Part shown: positions 2,801 through 31,061 of the stretch, piece after piece
How positions within the stretch are numbered: position 1 is the first letter of the stretch
Layout of the letters: each line of letters starts with the position of its first letter
From: Lophium mytilinum
Taxonomy: Eukaryota
Assembly: GCA_010093605.1 (NCBI GenBank)
Contig: MU004195.1
Coordinates: forward strand, 62,001-126,000
Direction of reading: 5' to 3'
DNA length: 64,000 nucleotides
Notes under the pieces: model-generated
Told to the model about the DNA's origin: nothing
Databases searched by the model: none
The model's input: only the letters and a program-made list of their open reading frames with translations
Made by a program: the position numbers and the translations under genes

Positions 2801-3744
2801 GATATAGTAAAAATTAAGTAAATTAAAAGGAAATTAGTAGAGTTAAGTTATAAGAAATAGAAAAGGGGTTTATTATTATTTATATATCTATATACTAGTA
2901 GTATATTCCTCTAAAAGTAAATTTAATACTAAGGCTTTATAACTTAAAATAACTCTAAAATTAATAATTTTAAGTATAATTAATAGGAAATTATAAGCTT
3001 TACAACTCTTATTATATATATAATAGGAAAATACAACGTTTTAATAGTAAGGATGTTAGTGCTTATAGCAGCTGTAAAGAGATTCGGCTGCGATTTGATG
3101 CAATTATACTGCCACCGCCTTCCTCGCTTAGTAGCGCTGCCAAGCCTGGCGTTTGTATAATCTCAGTCAATACGGTAATCAAGGTACCATGTAGCTATCT
3201 ATATTGCTGATGCCTTTCCACGTCTTAGTTAGTTCAACTCCAATAAACCTTGTTAGCATCACAACTATTTCCATCGGACTTCAGACCCCGTCCCTAAAGA
3301 GGACAATAGCCGTAGGCTATTAATGGTACGGTTAGTCAGCGCGAGGATTCTGCACCTACAAGGGTTTTAGCAAGTCGGCCCCCACACACAGCGAGGCTAT
3401 GAACTTGTCTGCAGAACACCATGGATTTCTGCAACGTCATACCCCGTGGAGGCTGCCTCCTTCTGAGATACGAACAGCTTCATTGTGACACGAAGCGGAA
3501 ATCGACGCAGCGGCCAACGCTCGCCCCAGAGCGCAGCACGAGTTCGGCCAACGATAACCTCGAATGCCATTGGAGGATCTCTGATGACGACGGAAACGAG
3601 TCCGGAGGTTGCATGAACGACGAAGCATTTGCTCCATGCGGTCTATACGGTCATCTGCATAGCAGACATACTCTCCAGCCTATTGATGTGCCGAGACAGC
3701 TTTCTCCTGAACCGTACAGCGCGTAAGCTACCACGGCCAGTACC

Positions 3745-6700
3745 ATGGATCCCATAACGGCGGTTGGCTTAGCGTCAAGCGTTGTCCAGCTTGCAGATGC
3801 TGCATTCAAGATTGTCAAACTGCTGGACACCATCGTAGAAGGAGGCAAAGACCGACGGAAACTCTGCGATGAGTTCACGTTGCTGTGGATGACGCTCCGC
3901 AACCTGGAAATCCAATTCGCCCCGCTATCAGCAGACCAGAATGGACAATGGCTGAAGCCAATCGAATCGCTGGCCGCCCCTGGTGGCATTTTTGAGCAAA
4001 CCAGCGCAGCTATAAGCGATGTCTGGGGCCGACTAACGACAGCGAGCGACTCACGTCGGGCCAAATTGATACAAGCTATGAGATGGCCCTACGACCAAGA
4101 ACAAGTGGAAAAGATAGTCGCCCGAGTCGAACGTTTGAAGTCATCGCTGAGTATTGTTCTGAATCAGGCTCAAATTGCTCAAACCTACGAGATGCAAGAA
4201 GGGATATCGGAGATGGTCAGGAAGACGACTGATAGCGAGTTCAAGGAGATCCTCGACTGGCTATCTCCATTGAACTTTCGTCAGAAGCAAGAAAGTACGG
4301 TTGGCTCCCCTGGAACCGGAGGCTGGCTCTTCCAGGGTGCACAATTTCGTCGATGGGCTTTTGGCAAAGATCCTTGGTTGTGGTGCTATGGAGACCCCGG
4401 GGCAGGTAGGTCTGGCCGTCCCAAGGTTACGATTCTTGGTCTGACCGTTCCTAGGAAAAACTGTCATTGCATCGATGGCTGTAGATCATCTCAGAAAGCG
4501 CCATGAAGACAAGAACGCGATTGTCTTGATTGCGTTTTGTAGTTTCGACAACCCGACTACACAGTTCATAGAGCCACTCATTGCCAGCTTACTAAAGCAA
4601 GTTTTCCAATCCCGCGATTCTATTTCCAAACAGCTTCTTGAGCTCTATCAGAAGCACCGAAAAGACAGTACAAGTCCGACGCTATCTCAGCTGGTAGACG
4701 TCCTCGATGACGCCATCAGCCAGTACGACAAAGTTTTCATCATATTAGATGCCTTGGATGAACTCAGCGATGATGCGAAACGAGGACGACTTCTCGAGAC
4801 TTTTAGGAAATTTGAAAAATTCAAGGCCGCGAAAGGCAGTTATCCCCAGGTTATGGTGACTTCACGAAATCTAGACAGCATTGCTACCCGATTTGGAGAT
4901 ACCGCTGGCAGAATATCTTGCGATGGCTGCGGATGCAAGAGTCTCGAGGTCTATCATCACTGCGACGATTGTGAAGATTGGGATATCTGCGAAGATTGCC
5001 TTCAGAAGGGCATCGGATGCGGAAATATCGGGCACACGCTAACGAAGCAGTTCAGCAGCATTAACATAGAGATATCTGCCCACCCAGAGGACGTCAAAAG
5101 CTACGTGAACGAGAGGATTGAGATGGAGCCAGATCTCGCGCAATTTGTCAAAAAGACTCCGGGGCTCCGAGAGCGCATTTTGAAGACGGTCATTGCAAAA
5201 GCCAAAAAGATGTACGTCCGAGCATTATCTTGACCTACATAAAGCGATCAACCAAGCTAACTCACATAGGTTTCTTCTCGCAATGTTTCACATGAACGCT
5301 CTGGCTGATTGTGTTGATAAGAGAGACCTAGAAGAAGCACTGAAAAACCTGCCGAAAGAGATCAGCGGCATCTACGACCAAGCAATGACACGAATCGAGA
5401 AATTGACGCCAAACCGGCAAAGAGCGGTCAAGAAACTCTTCATGTGGGTGACCTACGCTGAGAGACCATTGAAGGTTGTCGAACTAGAACATGCGACCGC
5501 GATATCTCGCGGTGTAAGAGATATTCAGCGAGACCATATCCTCTCAGCAAAGGCACTCATGTCTCTCAGTGCCGGCATTGTTCACATTGACGAAGGCGGG
5601 AACGTAAGGCTTGTGCATGAAACTGCCGAAGGCTATTTCAAAGACCGGCGGGAAACGCTGTTCCCAGATGGAGAGGTTCAAATCGCGGAATGTTGCATTG
5701 CGTACCTCCAGCTGGATTCTTTCGAGGAAGGACCCTGCCAAGGGCCGGACGAATCAAATCTATATGAAGAGCGTTTGTTGCATCATCCTTTCCTCGGATA
5801 CGCCGCTCTGCATTGGGGCCACCATGCACGGAAATGCGATTCAGACCTTGTAACTCCGCAGGCTCTCATGTTTCTACGGAATAAACAATACCTGGCCTCT
5901 GCGGTCCAAGCTCTCTGGTACACAGATACCTGGTCCAGTGAGAGCTGGGACGTACTAGCGGGCGTCACTCCGCTTCACATTGCGTCCTTCTTCGGAGTTA
6001 ATAAGATCGTTACTCAACTGATCACCGAGGGTGCTGAAATCGATGCGCGAGACTCTCTAGGGACGACACCACTTGTCTATGCCGCCTCTAAAGCACGTCT
6101 AGATGTCGTCGAGACTCTTCTCTCTTCAGGTGCCTCTGCCAATACTGTTTGCTCCCGGGGATCGACGCCTTTGCTTAGAGCAACATCAGCAGGCCATGAA
6201 GATATTGTGCGCCGATTGCTCAAAGAAACGGATATAGCAATAAATCAGCTTTATGCCTCCCGGTCTAACAGGTCCGCTCTTATGATCACTGTATCGAATG
6301 GATTCGACAAAATCATGCGACTACTTCTTGAACGCTCTGATATCGATATAAATCTGGATACAGATAAGCCTGCAGGATGGTCGGCTATACACTTTGCAGT
6401 GGATGGACGAAATAACGCAGCCCTTGACATGCTAGTCAATGATCCCCGAACAAACATCAATGCCATGGACCGGGCATGGTATACACCTTTGGAATATGCA
6501 GCTTCTGAAGGCTTCATTCCGGAACTGCGGCTACTTCTCGATCACAATGCAGATCCTAACACACAAGACGATCAGGGAGGCCGGCCTATCCAGCGAGCCA
6601 TCGACTATGGTGAAACAGAGGCAGTCAAGTTGCTTCTCGACTACAATGTGGAGTGGGACTTTCGAGATATATTTGAGCGCACGATCATTCACGCAGCAGC

Positions 6701-7964
6701 TTGTAACAACCAATTCAGGACACTGCGCGTGATTCTTGAGAGGTGCAAAGGCCTTGATATCAACGCTCAAGGGTCGAGATCAGGAGAAACGGCACTCCAC
6801 GATGCCGCTCGTTCAGGTTTTATTAGGACTGTTCAGGTCCTCCTCGAGTTCGGGGCTCTTACCACGATCGAAAACCATGCGGGTCGAACACCTGTGAAAT
6901 CTGCGAAAGATGCTGGGAAAGACGCAGTCCTGGAATTGCTGCAAGTAGCTCGGAAGAAGGAAGAGGCCGAGGGTCGCATTCGCCCAGTCCACAAAGCCGA
7001 CACCTTCTCGGTAAGCAGCGAGCTACCCCTATGGATGGCGGTCCAAAAACACACCAGCGACGAACTTCGCGAACGCATCGCTCGCACCTCAGTTGCCGAG
7101 ATGGACCAGATCAGCCCAGACTCCGGCGACACAGCGTTGCATCTTGCCGTCCTAAAAGACCGGCCAGACGTGGTGGGGATGCTCCTCGATGCCGGCGCTG
7201 ACCCCAACATCCTCGACACGTTCGATCGCACTGCGCTCATTCTCGCGTGCCAAAACGGGGATATTGCGGCGGTCCGCCGTCTCGTTGACCATGGCGCCGA
7301 CCTCAACATCGCCATATTCCGCGAGCAGCCCGCATGGGAGATCGCGTTTACTTCTAACTACGCCAGTATCACGACGTACCTCCAAGCGCAGCCGTCCTGT
7401 GAGATTAAGTCGAATACTAGCACGTTGTTCATTTGTCTAGCGTGGGCTGCGTATGCGGGCAATCTAGAGGCGGCGAGGCGGCTTATTGAGGCAGGCGCGC
7501 CGGTGCATTTGAAGAGCTCGGAGGGCAAGACAGCAAGCCAGATCGCGAAGGACTACGGACATGAGGAAATGGAGCGATATCTTGTTGAGGAGGCGGCTAA
7601 GCAAAGATCGATGCCATCGCCACCGATCGTTCCCCCGCCGCCGGTTGTTCAGCCGCAGTCTGTCGTGCAAAAGGTGGACGTGAAGGTTGAACCGAAGGCC
7701 GCGCTGGATGTGGAAGCCGAGACATTACCACAAGTCAAAATGGACATACTTTCTGAGAAGAAATCCGTGGACGAGATTTCAACAGTCGACCATTTTTCAG
7801 AAGGTGCAAAACAAAGCGGTGGAGGCGGAGGTCTCGAAACTGTGCAACCGATAGCTCAAAGACGGAGTGAGCACACGAACACGGACCTTGCGAATAACCC
7901 TATCTTTTTGGGCATACTGGGGTTGGTCCTCCTGGCGACTTTGTGTAAAGTTTGGCTTGGATGA
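3745..7964 (+). CDS. Fungal NLR: N-terminal HeLo-like/SesA-like helical domain, NACHT (with inserted ZZ-type Zn finger), winged helix, ankyrin repeats, Pro-rich linker, hydrophobic C-terminus; ~1370 aa
   Basis: Exons 3745-4405, 4455-5211, 5270-7964 splice in frame. Splicing restores P-loop GDPGAGKT and KMFLLA. Walker B ILDALDE, VTSR, HPFLGYAALHWGHH and many TPLHxA/TALHxA ankyrin starts are present; the MDPITAVGLASSVVQL start is typical of fungal NLR N-termini. Confidence 0.92.
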
Positions 7965-9053
7965 TGAGTTTCATTTTGTCGCGGCGCTCGTCTTTCAGCG
8001 CTCTCGGGTTCATCTGGTCCGATGTATTTAAGTAGATATCCAGCATATTCAGAACTTGTATAACTCGTGCATTCAGTTTCATTGTCGGAGACGGTGACGG
8101 GCTTCAGAGCAAACTGCTGCCACGAGTGGTCGACTTTAGTCATCGCTTGGGGTTGCTCAATAGGTCAATAAGAATACAAATACGATGTAACAGTTGCGAA
8201 AGTAGAGATTAGACTACAGTTTGACTGGCGAACTCGCTGAGCTGGGACACTCCTCACTTACATATCCATATGTGTGAACCCATGGCGTCTGAAAGTTATG
8301 TAAAGATTGACTCACTAGACACTGGACTACCTCTCAACTGACTAGCTCTATACTACCTGGACTACCCCTAACAGCGATATCAAGTGAGGAAAAACAAGGC
8401 TAGAGAGGCGAAGTATTGCTCTGCCGGCGCAAACTATGTGGATTCCAAGTTTTTGGGCGTTATGTACACTTCACCAGGGAGGGAAACCAACACTCGTTAC
8501 CCGGCTACTGGTTATAAAGGTCTGCTCGATCGCATCGTAAAGTCTTTCATGAAACTGAGCTGCAATAGAGCAAGGTAGAGCAGCGCGAGCATCGAAGGAG
8601 CTGCTCTTGTGTGTCGCAGAGCTAGCATCGGGGAGTGTAGCAGAGGCGCATGTTTTCCGAGCAGTTCCAGGTGTAGCTCAAGCCTTTCAGACAATGGTGT
8701 TGAGCGAGCGATAAGGGAGCCTGCACAATGGGAGATACATTCAGATACCTAGATACTTACTATCACATGTCTTAGGGACATAGAGGTGGATGCAGTGGAT
8801 TGAGACTACGTTTTAGCTGACCGGCAAATCACATGCTAGCTGAGTCATCGCTCACTGTGGTATCGCGCGAGTAAAGGTACATCCATCCAGATCATTCACG
8901 TTTGTTCTTACTTGGGCTGAATGGGTTGTGTTTTGGGTACCTAAATAGACCGCATCATGGGCAGTCTAGACTAGGATGAAGATCTCAAACTGTGAGATCT
9001 AAAGAAAGAAAAAAGTTTACAAGAATCAGCTCCCGCTGTTGCTTCCACCGTTC

Positions 9054-9998
9054 CTAGAGAATGAAACGACCTATCGTAGACATTGGGAGCTGTAGCTCCC
9101 TGAGCAGCGCCATAATGTGCTGCATCACCTCATGATACTTCAACTCGTGCAGCCTAGCTCCCAAAACCCTCATCTCCGGGCTTACTTCCTGGCCAACCTG
9201 GAGCTGAAGCAAGCACTGATTAGCTAGCTCTTCGATCGGACCCAGCGCCGTGAAGCAGCTCTCGACCATAGCAATCTGCACGCGCGCCGCTGGTGGAAAC
9301 ATGGCGACGATGTCAGAGTATTTGTCGTTGGTGGTCGGACGGCCGGGGCGATGTTGAACTGGGTTCGAGTTGGTGAATTCTTGGCGGCAGATAGGGCATT
9401 TGCTCGCGTTCTCGGCCCCAGAGTTGATCCAGGTGTCCAAGCAGTCCCGCCCTAGTGTATGCTGGCAATAGGTCTTGACGGCGGGCTCCGCGCCGTCGTC
9501 GGCAAGTGGCTCATGGCAGATAGAGCAGCAAAAGCAACCGAGTGAGTGGTGAACACTGCACTCACGGGCATCCGGACCCAAACTTGAGACATTCACCGCC
9601 TGGCTGCTAGTCTCCACGGTGATGGGGGCTTTGAAGGGCTGGGCGTATGCTTGGGTCAAGTTGTGCTTCCAGGTGAAGATAGCGACCGCCAAGCCGACAA
9701 CTTCGTTGAAGAACTCGTCCCAGCCGTCGCTCGTTTCTTCTCGCGTGAGATCGAGCATGAAGCGGTATTGCTCGGGGAGCTGGGCTCGCAGGTATTCGGT
9801 CGTGTAGATGGATTTAGCGATGGAGTACCGCGAGTGCTTGTAGCCTTGCTGCGAGTCGGGTTGCCATTCGGTGCGCGGCACGTCGCGTGTTAAGTGAAGG
9901 ATTTTGGTGCCAATGAAGCGGATTGCGATAGCGAAAGGGTCGGGTCCCGCGAATAGAGCTTCGATAAAGCGCTCGGAGTCCGGTTCTGCGATCGACAT
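9054..9998 (-). CDS. RING-finger protein (C3HGC3/San1-type), putative E3 ubiquitin ligase, 314 aa, intronless
   Basis: CSICHEP...CQHTLGRDCLDTW...CPICR. Confidence 0.8.
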   Translation of the reverse strand: MSIAEPDSERFIEALFAGPDPFAIAIRFIGTKILHLTRDVPRTEWQPDSQQGYKHSRYSIAKSIYTTEYLRAQLPEQYRFMLDLTREETSDGWDEFFNEVVGLAVAIFTWKHNLTQAYAQPFKAPITVETSSQAVNVSSLGPDARECSVHHSLGCFCCSICHEPLADDGAEPAVKTYCQHTLGRDCLDTWINSGAENASKCPICRQEFTNSNPVQHRPGRPTTNDKYSDIVAMFPPAARVQIAMVESCFTALGPIEELANQCLLQLQVGQEVSPEMRVLGARLHELKYHEVMQHIMALLRELQLPMSTIGRFIL

Positions 9999-10901
9999 AA
10001 TGAATGCTTGGTGGTAGCTTGTTGCGATTGTTCTGGTGTGATGGATTTGCTGTGGTGGTTTTAGTGGGGCTTTGAGAAGGTCTGTTTCGGCGAAGGTGGA
10101 AGAATGATTCTTAGGACTGGTAACCAGCGGCGGTGACGAAAAAACGGAGACATTACCTGCCTGTTATATGTACCGCTAATACCCGCGCGACGTGAATCCA
10201 CCCTGGGGGTGGATCTAAGATGTGTTGGTTTACTCGCCATAATGATTGTCGACATGTAACGATATTGTGCAATATAGACTTGGAGAGAGGATGAAAGAAA
10301 CACGTTCGCCATTGTGCAGAAGTAACTTGCACGCGCATGGTTCTTGCAAGATCGTACCAGGCCATAGGTTCCTGCGCACGGGGATACTACTGGGCTGGAC
10401 TTAGGTACTCTTGCCCGTTTGACCACTGCAAGGAGTAGCCCAGCAATGAGGCTCGAACAGTCAAAGATTAGCTTAGATTCCCGCTTTGTGTAATATGATA
10501 TCGCGCCTGGCTTTTGGTTGACCCATGGGGGCACTCCAAGCAGTCGCAAACCAGTGTGCAGCGACTAATCTGAACACACAGATATCGCACTACTTGAGTG
10601 CGACATTTGGAAGCTAGACACCACTGTAAGGAGGACCCCTGTTGGAAAATGTTGAGTCGGTTATCATATTGCCTAACTCCCACTGGATCGACTGAGAAGA
10701 AGCGCATTGAAGATCGAAAAGCCTACAGGGGTACCCCAGGCAGTGGCAGAAAACTAGTACTATGCATAACTTCACATCAAGAATATACTACCGGTTTCGC
10801 GATATAAGTCATCGGGGTCCATCTGAACACCACAACGAAATTCAATATAACAAACGCTTACGTATGCCTTTCGCTAATTCCAAAAGCTAGAGCATCTTTG
10901 C

Positions 10902-29245: not shown

Positions 29246-30418
29246 TCAAATATCCACCCAACGCAATTGAACATACTGAACCAAACCCATGCACATCAGC
29301 CCCAGGAGCCACATACTAATAGCCATAAGCCCCCTTCCCCAGTCTCTCAAAGCCCCATCCACCCACCTCACCACATTACCGAAGCCCAGCGCCAGAACCA
29401 ACGACGCAACCGCTACAAACGAAGTAAAGAGACTCTCATACACCCTCAATCGCCTCAGAGCCCAGCCCTCCAGATCCCGCGCCACCATTCCCTCCTGAAT
29501 CTGCCTCAACCCCTGTATGATCTCCCCAATCTCTCTCATCTCCCTCAAACGTTCATTCGCATGGTCCACCTGCTGTCGCTGCTGTCCCAGAACCTCTTGC
29601 TCCCGAGCGAGTTCCTGCTCTCTCCTCTGCCTCTCCACGTCCTCGTCCATCAGGCGTCGCAGTCGCTGTCGTTCTCTAGCCGCTCGCTCCCGAACTCCGT
29701 CAAACCCGTCCTCTACCCTCTGCCTCACCGGTTCCGCCTCCCTCAGATCTCCAATCTCTTGTCGTTGTGCTTGCACCTCCTGCTCCTGATCCCCTCCCTG
29801 CTCCACCCCTACCCTCTCCTCCTCCGCATCCATCGCCTCTCGCAATACCAGCAGCTGATCCAACAGTCCGCGAACCCGCCTCTGCGCCCCCTCGTCCGCA
29901 CCACCAGGGCGCTGCAACCGCTGCTCCATCCGCAGCTCCGCGACGTCCGCATCAAGCCCTTCCCGCAAACGCTGCTGATTGACACCCAGCTCCAACAACT
30001 CCCGCAACTCCTCCATATTCCGCGGCGGCCACTGCACACGCGGCCGTACCACCACCCCCTCCCCGGCAAGCGCCGGAGCCCGGCGAGGGTTCGCGTTCCC
30101 CTCAGGTGCGAATAGCACGACGCGGCAGAACATGCAGCGGTTCGGGCGCGCGGGGGTGTCGAGCCAGCGCCGGAGGCAGGGCTCGCCGAAGATGTGGTTG
30201 CAGGGGAGGATGCGGACGGCGTTGTGGGGGATGGGGTGTTGCTGGAGGAGGGCTTCGGGGGGTGGGATGGCGGCGGCGGGGTCGGGGGTGTATTCTTCGT
30301 GGCAGATGGGGCAGGTGGGCCCGCGGAAGGGGTCGGTTGGGAGGGAGGGTTGGAGCATGTGGGCGAGGAAGTGGGTTTTGGAGGGGAGGGCGGGGGGTGG
30401 GATGAGTGGGGCGGCCAT
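29246..30418 (-). CDS. RING-finger (C3HGC3) + coiled coil + two C-terminal TM helices; putative membrane-anchored E3 ligase, ~390 aa
   Basis: CPICHEEY...CNHIFGEPCLRRW...CMFCR; E/R/Q-rich coil; FVAVASLVLALGFG and LMAISMWLLGLMCMGLVQY. Start taken as MAAPLIPP (30418); the longer ORF start is less likely. Confidence 0.82.
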   Translation of the reverse strand: MAAPLIPPPALPSKTHFLAHMLQPSLPTDPFRGPTCPICHEEYTPDPAAAIPPPEALLQQHPIPHNAVRILPCNHIFGEPCLRRWLDTPARPNRCMFCRVVLFAPEGNANPRRAPALAGEGVVVRPRVQWPPRNMEELRELLELGVNQQRLREGLDADVAELRMEQRLQRPGGADEGAQRRVRGLLDQLLVLREAMDAEEERVGVEQGGDQEQEVQAQRQEIGDLREAEPVRQRVEDGFDGVRERAARERQRLRRLMDEDVERQRREQELAREQEVLGQQRQQVDHANERLREMREIGEIIQGLRQIQEGMVARDLEGWALRRLRVYESLFTSFVAVASLVLALGFGNVVRWVDGALRDWGRGLMAISMWLLGLMCMGLVQYVQLRWVDI

Positions 30419-31061
30419 TTGGGGTTGTAGGGGTGCTTTGTGGGACTGGGGGGTGCGGTTGATGATGGAAGTTCTGGGGGTGGTAGGGGTTGAGGCGTGG
30501 GCTTTTGTAGGTAGGGCTTTCTGTGGGCATGTGAAGTCTGCGGTAGACGACGAAAGCTGTGGAGAAGATGAGGCTCTGAGGTATGAGAGATTATGAAGGC
30601 GGAAATGTTGTTGATGTAGATGTGAAGAAGAGACACTAATGCTGCTGGATTCGGGAATGACGTGTCCATACTGATGTTGGCGTGCCTTATCTTCACGGTG
30701 GTGAGCATAAAATGTACTCGCGGAACCATGAAAGATGATGGCAGCCATCAGTAGGGCGTAGCGTTCACGTGGCTCTATCAAGAGTGAAGGCGCAAAAGCC
30801 GTTTGTGGTTGGAAAAAGACTACCTCCTGAAGTAACCGAAAAAGACTGCCCCCCAAGTGCCTTGCTCTATTGCATCTAGAACCATTGAGACTTGACACTC
30901 TTTATGACACTCCTTGGCCTAAACCTATTTGCGAGCAAGCGTCGGCGCCGATACCTCGATACAGGAGGGACATGTTGCTCGCCGCAATGGTCGTGTGATT
31001 TCCGAGAGCAACTCGAAGAGGAAAGGAAATCCGGGTGCCGATGAAGCGCAAGTGTTCGATA

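Follow-up and report, generated by a model that had tools for sequence, protein, structure and literature searches.

Can a zinc-binding domain be built into the ATPase core of a fungal NOD-like receptor (NLR), and what would it do there? The question is raised by a stretch of 64,000 nucleotides from Lophium mytilinum (assembly GCA_010093605.1, contig MU004195.1, positions 62,001 to 126,000 of the forward strand), which is referred to as the window throughout and whose own numbering is used for all coordinates. Its forward strand harbors the gene of a NACHT-ankyrin NLR, for which a preliminary description, drawn up from the DNA letters alone, had proposed a ZZ-type zinc finger at 4919..5035 inside the NACHT domain. 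Our analysis leaves us highly confident that this is a real, transcribed ZZ domain, ~47 residues long and predicted to contain two cross-braced zinc sites, which forms a module of ~52 residues in the nucleotide-binding domain (NBD) of a HeLo-like/MLKL-like, tail-bearing NLR, between the TSR358 motif and the next core strand, and that the insertion represents an old, probably single and clade-defining event in Pezizomycotina.

Transcription, identity and fold of the zinc finger

The gene consists of three exons, whose joining yields an uninterrupted frame of 4,113 nt for a protein of 1,370 amino acids:

3745..7964, forward strand: NLR gene from start to stop codon (sequence reading, in-frame splicing, spliced contig)
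3745-4405, forward strand: exon 1, which ends in GDPGAG
4406..4454, forward strand: intron 1, 49 nt, GT..AG, which splits the Walker A motif GDPGAG/KT (joint 4403>4453 skipping 49, cut +2, in contigs of the sequencing runs X3 and X4)
4455-5211, forward strand: exon 2, which resumes with KT and completes Walker A
5212..5269, forward strand: intron 2, 58 nt, GT..AG, with a CTAAC branch-like site (joint 5211>5270 skipping 58, X3 contig)
5270-7964, forward strand: exon 3, which resumes at KKM/FLLAMFHMNAL

The peptide CDGCGCKSLEVYHHCDDCEDWDICEDCLQKGIGCGNIGH is encoded at 4919-5035 on the forward strand in the frame of exon 2 and corresponds to residues 376-414 (C376-H414) of the spliced protein, where it is read, as had been predicted, between VMVTSR (sensor 1, with R358) and INIEISAHPED. 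The evidence for its transcription is the spliced contig of run X3, which is presumably RNA; no run recorded as RNA contains the stretch. This contig of 4,713 nt is identical to the window over 3700-8000. The two intervals missing from it are precisely 4406-4454 and 5212-5269, and from 4453 to 5211 it runs colinear with the window without any difference, straight through the zinc-finger segment. Both introns are retained in a DNA contig of run X1, and the joint of intron 1 is also found in X4, a low-coverage run of a related organism. Third codon positions account for 25 of the 35 listed differences between X4 and the window, and for all four of those listed within 4798-4950. The spliced contig drops both introns yet retains the segment, and the X4 differences are mostly third-position; the zinc-finger segment is therefore exonic and coding. 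A removal of the segment by splicing, which the preliminary description had named as a possible outcome, is at odds with the colinearity of the contig.

Pfam, which was run on the exons separately, recovers the ZZ family (PF00569) both within exon 2 (21.8 bits) and for the 59-60-aa piece on its own (23.5 bits; cut-off 21.4; E 4.8e-5). In a phmmer search against the PDB sequences, the ZZ domain of p62/Sequestosome-1 ranks first with 13 constructs (E 1.6e-4 to 1.3e-3), followed by the ZZ domains of HERC2, RSC8, BIG, fission-yeast Nbr1, dystrobrevin, CBP, PRT1, p300 and KCMF1. The AlphaFold2 (AF2) model of exon 2, based on 62 aligned sequences, has a mean predicted local distance difference test score (pLDDT) of 95.2, with ~96 in the blocks of the finger, and the model of the 60-aa ZZ segment alone (69 sequences) reaches 84.1. 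A Foldseek search with the exon-2 model places p62 ZZ structures at the top, interspersed with AAA+ ATPases. With the ZZ-only model, the matches listed are ZZ domains throughout, headed by p62 (5yp8; template modelling score (TM) 0.76, root-mean-square deviation (rmsd) 1.8 Å, 48 columns), and most of the matches listed have a TM of 0.64-0.79 and an rmsd of 1.2-2.6 Å. The exhaustive comparison with VIA-align assigns residues 151-201 of the exon-2 model to the ZZ domain of Nbr1 (Z 7.1, rmsd 1.3 Å over 49 residues) and of p62 (Z 6.2), and indicates that the folded ZZ is slightly wider than 4919-5035, comprising about residues 372-422 or roughly 4907-5059 of the window. In the ESM Atlas, exon 2 retrieved generic NPHP3_N clusters only, at 0.90, and the ZZ part alone gave no usable match.

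A ZZ fold is thus predicted for the segment with high confidence, whereas the preliminary description had named the lack of such a prediction as a second outcome that would speak against it. The Pfam score above the cut-off, the top rank of p62 among the PDB sequences and the modelled fold, with solved ZZ domains as its best matches, corroborate the initial identification. All eight Cys/His ligands (C376, C379, C390, C393, C399, C402, C409 and H414) are present in the cross-braced order. By analogy with p62, C376, C379, C399 and C402 would form zinc site 1 and C390, C393, C409 and H414 zinc site 2, and the domain is predicted to bind two zinc ions under this putative assignment.

Position within the NACHT core and evolutionary age of the insertion

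The location of the finger relative to the landmarks of the NBD is given by the following features:

4387..4462, forward strand: Walker A / P-loop GDPGAGKT, interrupted by intron 1 (G, K and T nearly invariant in alignment A3)
4736..4762, forward strand: Walker B FIILDALDE (D319 invariant; L321, D322 and E323 nearly invariant)
4859..4867, forward strand: sensor-1 motif T-S-R at the end of core strand β4 (R358 invariant; strand at exon-2 residues 131-134 in the model)
4901..5056, forward strand: insertion of ~52 aa relative to insert-less relatives, exon-2 residues ~149-200 (flank matches abut in insert-less targets)
4913..5053, forward strand: ZZ-type zinc finger proper, I374-F420 (Pfam ZZ, p62 alignment, AF2 models, Foldseek and VIA-align, ligand conservation)
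5060..5077, forward strand: INIEIS, presumably the last core strand (β5) of the NBD, followed by the conserved D433..Y437 (D212 and Y216 in exon-2 numbering, nearly invariant)

The NLR thus has all three hallmarks, namely Walker A GxxxxGK[ST] (GDPGAGKT), Walker B hhhhD[AG]hDE (FIILDALDE) and the sensor-1 arginine (TSR). Exon 2 scores 74.6 bits with NPHP3_N (PF24883; cut-off 24.8), the profile positions 1-33 of which fall on the end of exon 1, and the match to NACHT (PF05729) is weak in this protein (E 0.066), yet present in 44 of 69 scanned members of the clade. Outside the finger, the best VIA-align matches of the exon-2 model are AAA+/STAND ATPases at middling Z, namely TnsC (Z 9.4), ORC/Cdc6 (8.5-9.0), NRC2 (8.4), ZAR1 (8.2), Avs3 (7.5) and CED-4 (7.2); the model lacks β1, which is encoded in exon 1, and the 50 matches listed include no solved NACHT protein.

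In a 62-sequence alignment (A1, exon-2 numbering), D98 and R137 are invariant, L100, D101, E102, T135 and S136 are conserved in at least 90% and D212 and Y216 are nearly invariant, and the finger (residues 155-193) is located between the sensor-1 R137 and D212/Y216. In relatives without the insert, the matches to residues 1-148 and 201-250 of the query adjoin in the target. The stretch from exon-2 residue 143 to 205 comprises 63 aa here. Of the 67 relatives classed as devoid of a Cys-rich insert, 63 have 9-13 aa in its place and 57 precisely 11 aa (MAFFT), a difference that sets the size of the insertion at ~52 aa. R358 is ~16 residues away from the IE motif in the short-linker relatives, in agreement with the distance of 15-20 residues that had been given for related NACHT domains. 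The placement of the ZZ within the NACHT core instead of at a terminus, as originally claimed, is confirmed by the conserved residues on both sides and by the abutting flanks.

The sensor-1 strand is followed by a short helix, and the insertion point is located between this helix and INIEIS. The latter has no strand call in the exon-2-only model, probably because its neighbor β1 is encoded by exon 1. Going by the general topology of P-loop ASCE (additional strand, catalytic E) proteins, the insertion loop would be on the face opposite the nucleotide, so that the insert need not disturb catalysis.

The distribution of the insert was assessed with phmmer, in an exhaustive search through the representatives of 1.84 billion clusters (50% identity), which returned 4,467 proteins at E≤1e-3. 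The best 150 of these 4,467 were examined, 135 of which cover the insertion site and are informative, and 15 of which do not. The informative proteins fall into four classes:

Cys-rich insert of at least 40 aa with at least 5 Cys: 68 of 135
insert of comparable length, but just 4 Cys (P0088, P0114, P0144): 3 of 135
linker of 31 aa: 1 of 135
short linker of 9-13 aa: 63 of 135

A plain regular expression finds the finger motif in 52 of the best 150. The insert-bearers include Teloschistes, Pleopsidium, Stictis, Pycnora, Lobaria, Xanthocarpia and Gallowayella, which we take to be Lecanoromycetes, Cryomyces, Parastagonospora nodorum and Boeremia exigua, presumably Dothideomycetes, and Talaromyces stipitatus, which we assign to the Eurotiomycetes. 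All full-length orthologues with 47-54% identity over 1,250-1,391 alignment columns harbor the finger, at residues 366-368.

Phylogenetic trees of the NBD were calculated after removal of the insert columns. In the tree of 108 rows, from which rows with less than 100 residues left or less than 30 residues right of the site were excluded, the insert trait requires five changes, versus a mean of 35 under shuffled labels (none of 500 as low), and a branch with a Shimodaira-Hasegawa-like approximate likelihood ratio test (SH-aLRT) support of 98 separates 41 insert-bearers plus two others from 59 insert-less proteins plus six insert-bearers. A larger tree of 129 rows (right flank of at least 15 residues; 65 with insert) likewise requires five changes versus 43.5 under shuffling. 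The tree that constrains all 65 insert-bearers together is 21.4 log units likelier than the one from a free quick search and is not rejected by the approximately unbiased test (p-AU 0.681). These sequence-based results are compatible with one ancient gain, or one loss, plus a few later losses (e.g., in P0092 and P0029). Given the same insertion site in 68 of 135 proteins, spread over several classes of Pezizomycotina, the insertion is an old, clade-defining feature of their NLRs that probably originated in a single event.

Two deviating types deserve mention. P0092 (254 aa) and P0029 have no finger (13-aa and 31-aa linkers) though they are positioned within well-supported insert-bearing groups of the NBD tree, and may have lost it secondarily or be artefacts of gene calling on short contigs. 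In P0034, P0047, P0059, P0043 and P0044, the insert comprises 96-165 aa, with 60-110 additional, very acidic and serine-rich residues ahead of the finger that are probably disordered.

Candidate functions of the inserted module

Conservation of the ZZ is strongest at the zinc ligands, and its surface positions are variable. Among the 69 aligned members, C379 and C399 are found in all 69, C393 and C402 in 68, C376 in 67, C390 in 65, H414 in 58 and C409 in 56, and the full pattern CCCCCCCH is kept in 47. The seventh ligand varies even among the closest orthologues, with a p62-like His-x-His in P0156 and P0157. The ungapped alignment with p62 places D377, D395 and D397 on its residues D129, D147 and D149, which line the groove for the N-terminal arginine and are each needed for binding according to PMC6197226. 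The eight closest full-length orthologues harbor D377 in seven cases, an acidic residue at 395 in all eight and D397 in seven. The solved ZZ structures that were matched are, judging from their entry titles, mostly complexes with N-terminal peptides (p62, BIG, PRT1, KCMF1, HERC2 and p300).

ZZ-like motifs also occur elsewhere in insert-less relatives. P0035 (Geoglossum) has a ZZ-like Cys/His motif after the ankyrin repeats (~867-925, about residue 877; Pfam ZZ 19.2 bits), P0084 (Paramyrothecium) has a motif of the same pattern behind its repeats (~895-950, about residue 902), and a similar one is located near the C-terminus of the NACHT-ankyrin relative P0182 (~1389). The C-terminal motifs of P0035 and P0084 are more easily reconciled with a binding module that can be moved between sites than with one that merely braces the core, and the three C-terminal cases together suggest that the ZZ module works in its own right and in different positions of a protein.

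On the basis of the nearest solved relatives, which read N-terminal peptides, of the kept acidic triad and of the C-terminal module in relatives, we tentatively propose, by analogy, that the ZZ is a reader of free N-termini or short peptides of the p62/NBR1 kind which is wired into the NTPase switch, a reading that may well turn out to be wrong. The acidic residues D377, D395 and D397 would form a pocket in which a free protein N-terminus or a short peptide docks. Since the module is joined to the ATPase core at either end, a ligand in this pocket would bias the switch from the closed (ADP) to the open (ATP) state and promote oligomerisation, and both together would release the N-terminal killing domain. 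It is only the position of the ZZ that suggests this coupling to the ADP/ATP switch. The role of an integrated sensor envisaged in the preliminary description is plausible, with the acidic pocket residues kept, but its second option, an unusual decoy that was integrated individually, is not supported.

Several observations weigh against the proposed reader, or against the ZZ assignment on which it builds. Across the clade, 36 of 69 members have acidic residues at the equivalents of both D129 and D149, and 13 of 69 have them at all three positions. The Asp residues of the motif may be a general ZZ signature, as in the Pfam consensus, and not a sign of ligand binding. The Foldseek E-values of the ZZ are weak (best 2.7e-3, none ≤1e-3), which is expected for a domain of only ~50 aa. 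Among the eight orthologues, there is no signal of a fast-evolving sensor in the ZZ, whose mean pairwise identity of 0.48 resembles that of the NBD (0.53) and the ankyrin region (0.49). Finally, N132 and R139 of p62, which contribute to the recognition of the Arg-Glu degron (PMC6197226), are replaced by G380 and Y387 in the NLR; if the ZZ binds an N-terminus, its specificity therefore differs from that of p62.

Some of the same observations could be explained by a ZZ without any outside ligand, which would serve as a zinc-stabilised knob on the NBD and either dock onto the protein's own winged-helix/ankyrin part in the closed state or provide a protomer contact in the oligomer. The old and clade-wide insertion, the concentration of conservation in the zinc ligands with a variable surface, an evolutionary rate like that of the NBD among orthologues and the incomplete p62-like pocket in about half of the clade all point in this direction. 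The C-terminal motif of the same pattern in the insert-less P0035 and P0084 is, however, hard to square with a role at one spot of the NBD, and the acidic triad is well kept in the orthologue group of the window's own protein. We regard such a structural brace as a serious, though on balance unlikely, explanation.

A more far-reaching version of the N-terminus reader is that this clade of NLRs carries its own N-recognin. The ZZ pocket would detect new N-termini produced by foreign or deregulated proteases or by arginylation, and convert them into nucleotide exchange, oligomerisation and a HeLo-like attack on the membrane to which the tail would anchor the protein. This is a speculative idea that we consider improbable in its full form; if true, sensing would not have to pass through the ankyrin repeats, and fungi would have an equivalent of animal NLRP1, which senses proteases through N-degrons.

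Less probable still is an integrated decoy, in which the ZZ would copy a host ZZ that is attacked by antagonists, for example that of an autophagy receptor such as NBR1, and the NLR would be activated once this copy is modified. Among solved structures, two autophagy receptors, p62 and Nbr1, indeed provide the closest ZZ domains, and zinc fingers in fungal NLRs are considered as possible integrated decoys in PMC12258605. However, decoys are typically lineage-restricted, and this insert is common to 68 of 135 proteins with a single origin that is not rejected. The ZZ is too diverged for Pfam in 58 of 69 scanned members, fission-yeast Nbr1 (E 6.6e-3) is no nearer to it in sequence than human p62, HERC2 or yeast RSC8, and a second NLR or helper that might act as a partner was not found among the 34 long open reading frames (ORFs) scanned outside the NLR gene in the window.

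A redox or zinc switch, in which oxidation or zinc shortage frees the zinc, unfolds the insert and perturbs the ATPase core in response to oxidative stress, is very improbable: the seven or eight cysteines in 39 residues inside a switch domain, a purely inferential argument, are a composition shared by ordinary structural zinc fingers, and the swapping of Cys and His in the site-2 ligands among orthologues argues against a tuned thiol switch. That the finger is an artefact, i.e., a spliced-out segment, an annotation error or a chance cysteine-rich run, had beforehand only the short length and the Pfam score near the cut-off in its favor and can practically be dismissed in view of the spliced contig that retains the segment and loses both introns, the mostly third-codon differences of X4, the motif at the same site in 68 cluster representatives and the confidently predicted ZZ fold.

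Gene context, annotation and relation to known systems

The ATPase core is embedded in the following domains:

3760..4233, forward strand: putative HeLo-like N-terminal domain (PF17111, PigL_N / Helo_like_N), aa 6-163 (Pfam E 1e-5)
5421..5639, forward strand: winged-helix domain, Pfam GPIID_WHD (E 4.6e-7, 30.6 bits versus a cut-off of 27)
5973..7590, forward strand: ankyrin-repeat region, approximate limits (Ank_2 E 1.5e-115 in 12 stretches, plus other Ank models)
7902..7961, forward strand: C-terminal hydrophobic tail IFLGILGLVLLATLCKVWLG, possible tail anchor (mean Kyte-Doolittle hydropathy 2.36 over 19 aa)

PF17111, which is described as the HeLo-like, MLKL-related domain of fungal NLRs in PMC9815663, scores 25.5 bits over positions 3-160 of its 209-position profile, just below the cut-off of 27.2, and is matched in 10 of the 69 scanned clade members (best E 4.7e-11). 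At the other end of the protein, a proline-rich low-complexity region precedes the 20 hydrophobic residues encoded at 7902-7961. Judging from its sequence, the tail looks like a tail anchor, which would put the NLR on a membrane. Similar hydrophobic ends are present in the orthologues P0155, P0156, P0157, P0159 and P0161, but not in P0002 and P0154. Within the last ankyrin region, 42 nt (7408-7449) also match other, far deeper-covered contigs in the two runs X1 and X3, where both ends of the match are loose, and look like a short repeat that is shared with another locus.

Upstream of the gene, an ORF of 101 codons (3421-3726, forward strand; ATG at 3421, stop at 3724-3726) shares the frame of the main ORF and stops 18 nt short of its ATG at 3745. 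Since the spliced X3 contig reaches 476 nt past position 3700, this ORF is probably part of a 5' leader of ~520 nt, and it is not a missed N-terminal exon, because the alignments with the orthologues already begin at residue 1 of the main ORF. The window contains two ORFs with RING fingers on the reverse strand (9057-10163 and 29249-30901), the first of which is the convergent downstream neighbor of the NLR gene. The other neighbors have housekeeping functions and comprise a VTC/SPX polyphosphate synthase, a GH31 glucosidase, a TPR-kinase, a sugar transporter, a mitochondrial carrier and Abp2.

In current annotation the module is barely visible. Pfam finds the ZZ in 11 of 69 scanned members (E≤0.01), and PF00569 is present in none of 32 precomputed Pfam lists of full-length relatives. 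The automatic UniProt name of the Cryomyces relative is "ZZ-type domain-containing protein", and most others are called "hypothetical" or "ankyrin repeat protein". The combination of ZZ and NACHT is already visible in public databases, and the clade-defining insertion is under-annotated. Surveys that use Pfam cut-offs miss most members and can mislabel the position of the ZZ as "C-terminal". Whether the architecture might be both common and described, as the preliminary description had asked, is answered in two parts: it is common in databases, and our literature search found no description of a ZZ inside the NBD of a fungal NLR.

The sensing mechanisms of fungal NLRs are largely unexplained, and attention has been directed to the C-terminal repeats; here, a recognisable domain of a ligand-binding type is located inside the ATPase switch itself. 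The insert has been inherited by a large clade across lichen-forming, plant-associated and saprotrophic ascomycetes and keeps residues that other ZZ domains use for free N-termini, and the hypothesis of an N-terminus reader is concrete and cheap to test.

The best solved match, ungapped over 38 residues, is the ZZ of p62/SQSTM1 (and that of NBR1), the N-recognin of the autophagic N-degron pathway. Both have the Cx2C...Cx2C...Cx2C spacing in common and the three aspartates that bind N-terminal arginine align, but the ZZ of the NLR is embedded in an ATPase core and its last two ligands are C-x4-H instead of H-x2-H. In p62, the ZZ is a free-standing module between the PB1 domain and the TRAF6-binding region. 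The closest system in terms of architecture is that of the insert-less fungal NACHT-ankyrin NLRs (NPHP3_N/NACHT plus GPIID_WHD plus Ank, often HeLo-like). They belong to the same phmmer neighborhood and share Walker A, Walker B DALDE, the TSR sensor 1 and the D..Y motif, but differ by the linker of 9-13 instead of 63 residues and by their position on the opposite side of the branch with SH-aLRT 98.

Zinc fingers have been reported for 57 NLRs of Sordariales, 17 of them ZZ, in PMC12258605 (PLoS Genet 2025), which classes treble-clef zinc fingers as non-canonical binding domains and possible decoys and places the ZZ C-terminally. These proteins are likewise fungal NLRs with zinc fingers, but the accessible text describes no insertion within the NBD. 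Some of the 17 may represent the NBD-insert architecture, and the C-terminal form does occur, as documented by the relatives P0035 and P0084.

Plant NLRs with integrated domains, such as RGA5-HMA and RRS1-WRKY, harbor these additions mostly in terminal or interdomain positions and in a lineage-specific manner. The NLR studied here resembles them in the possession of an extra non-canonical binding domain, but differs in its location within the ATPase fold and in its clade-wide distribution. Clade-defining inserts that contact substrates or partners, such as the pre-sensor-1 hairpin and the helix-2 insert, are a known feature of AAA+/ASCE cores. To our knowledge, these inserts are β-hairpins or helices and not autonomous zinc fingers, and we know of none in STAND/NACHT proteins. 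The ZZ module of the Lophium NLR has in common with them that it is a small structured loop element of a P-loop core, which has been inherited throughout a clade.

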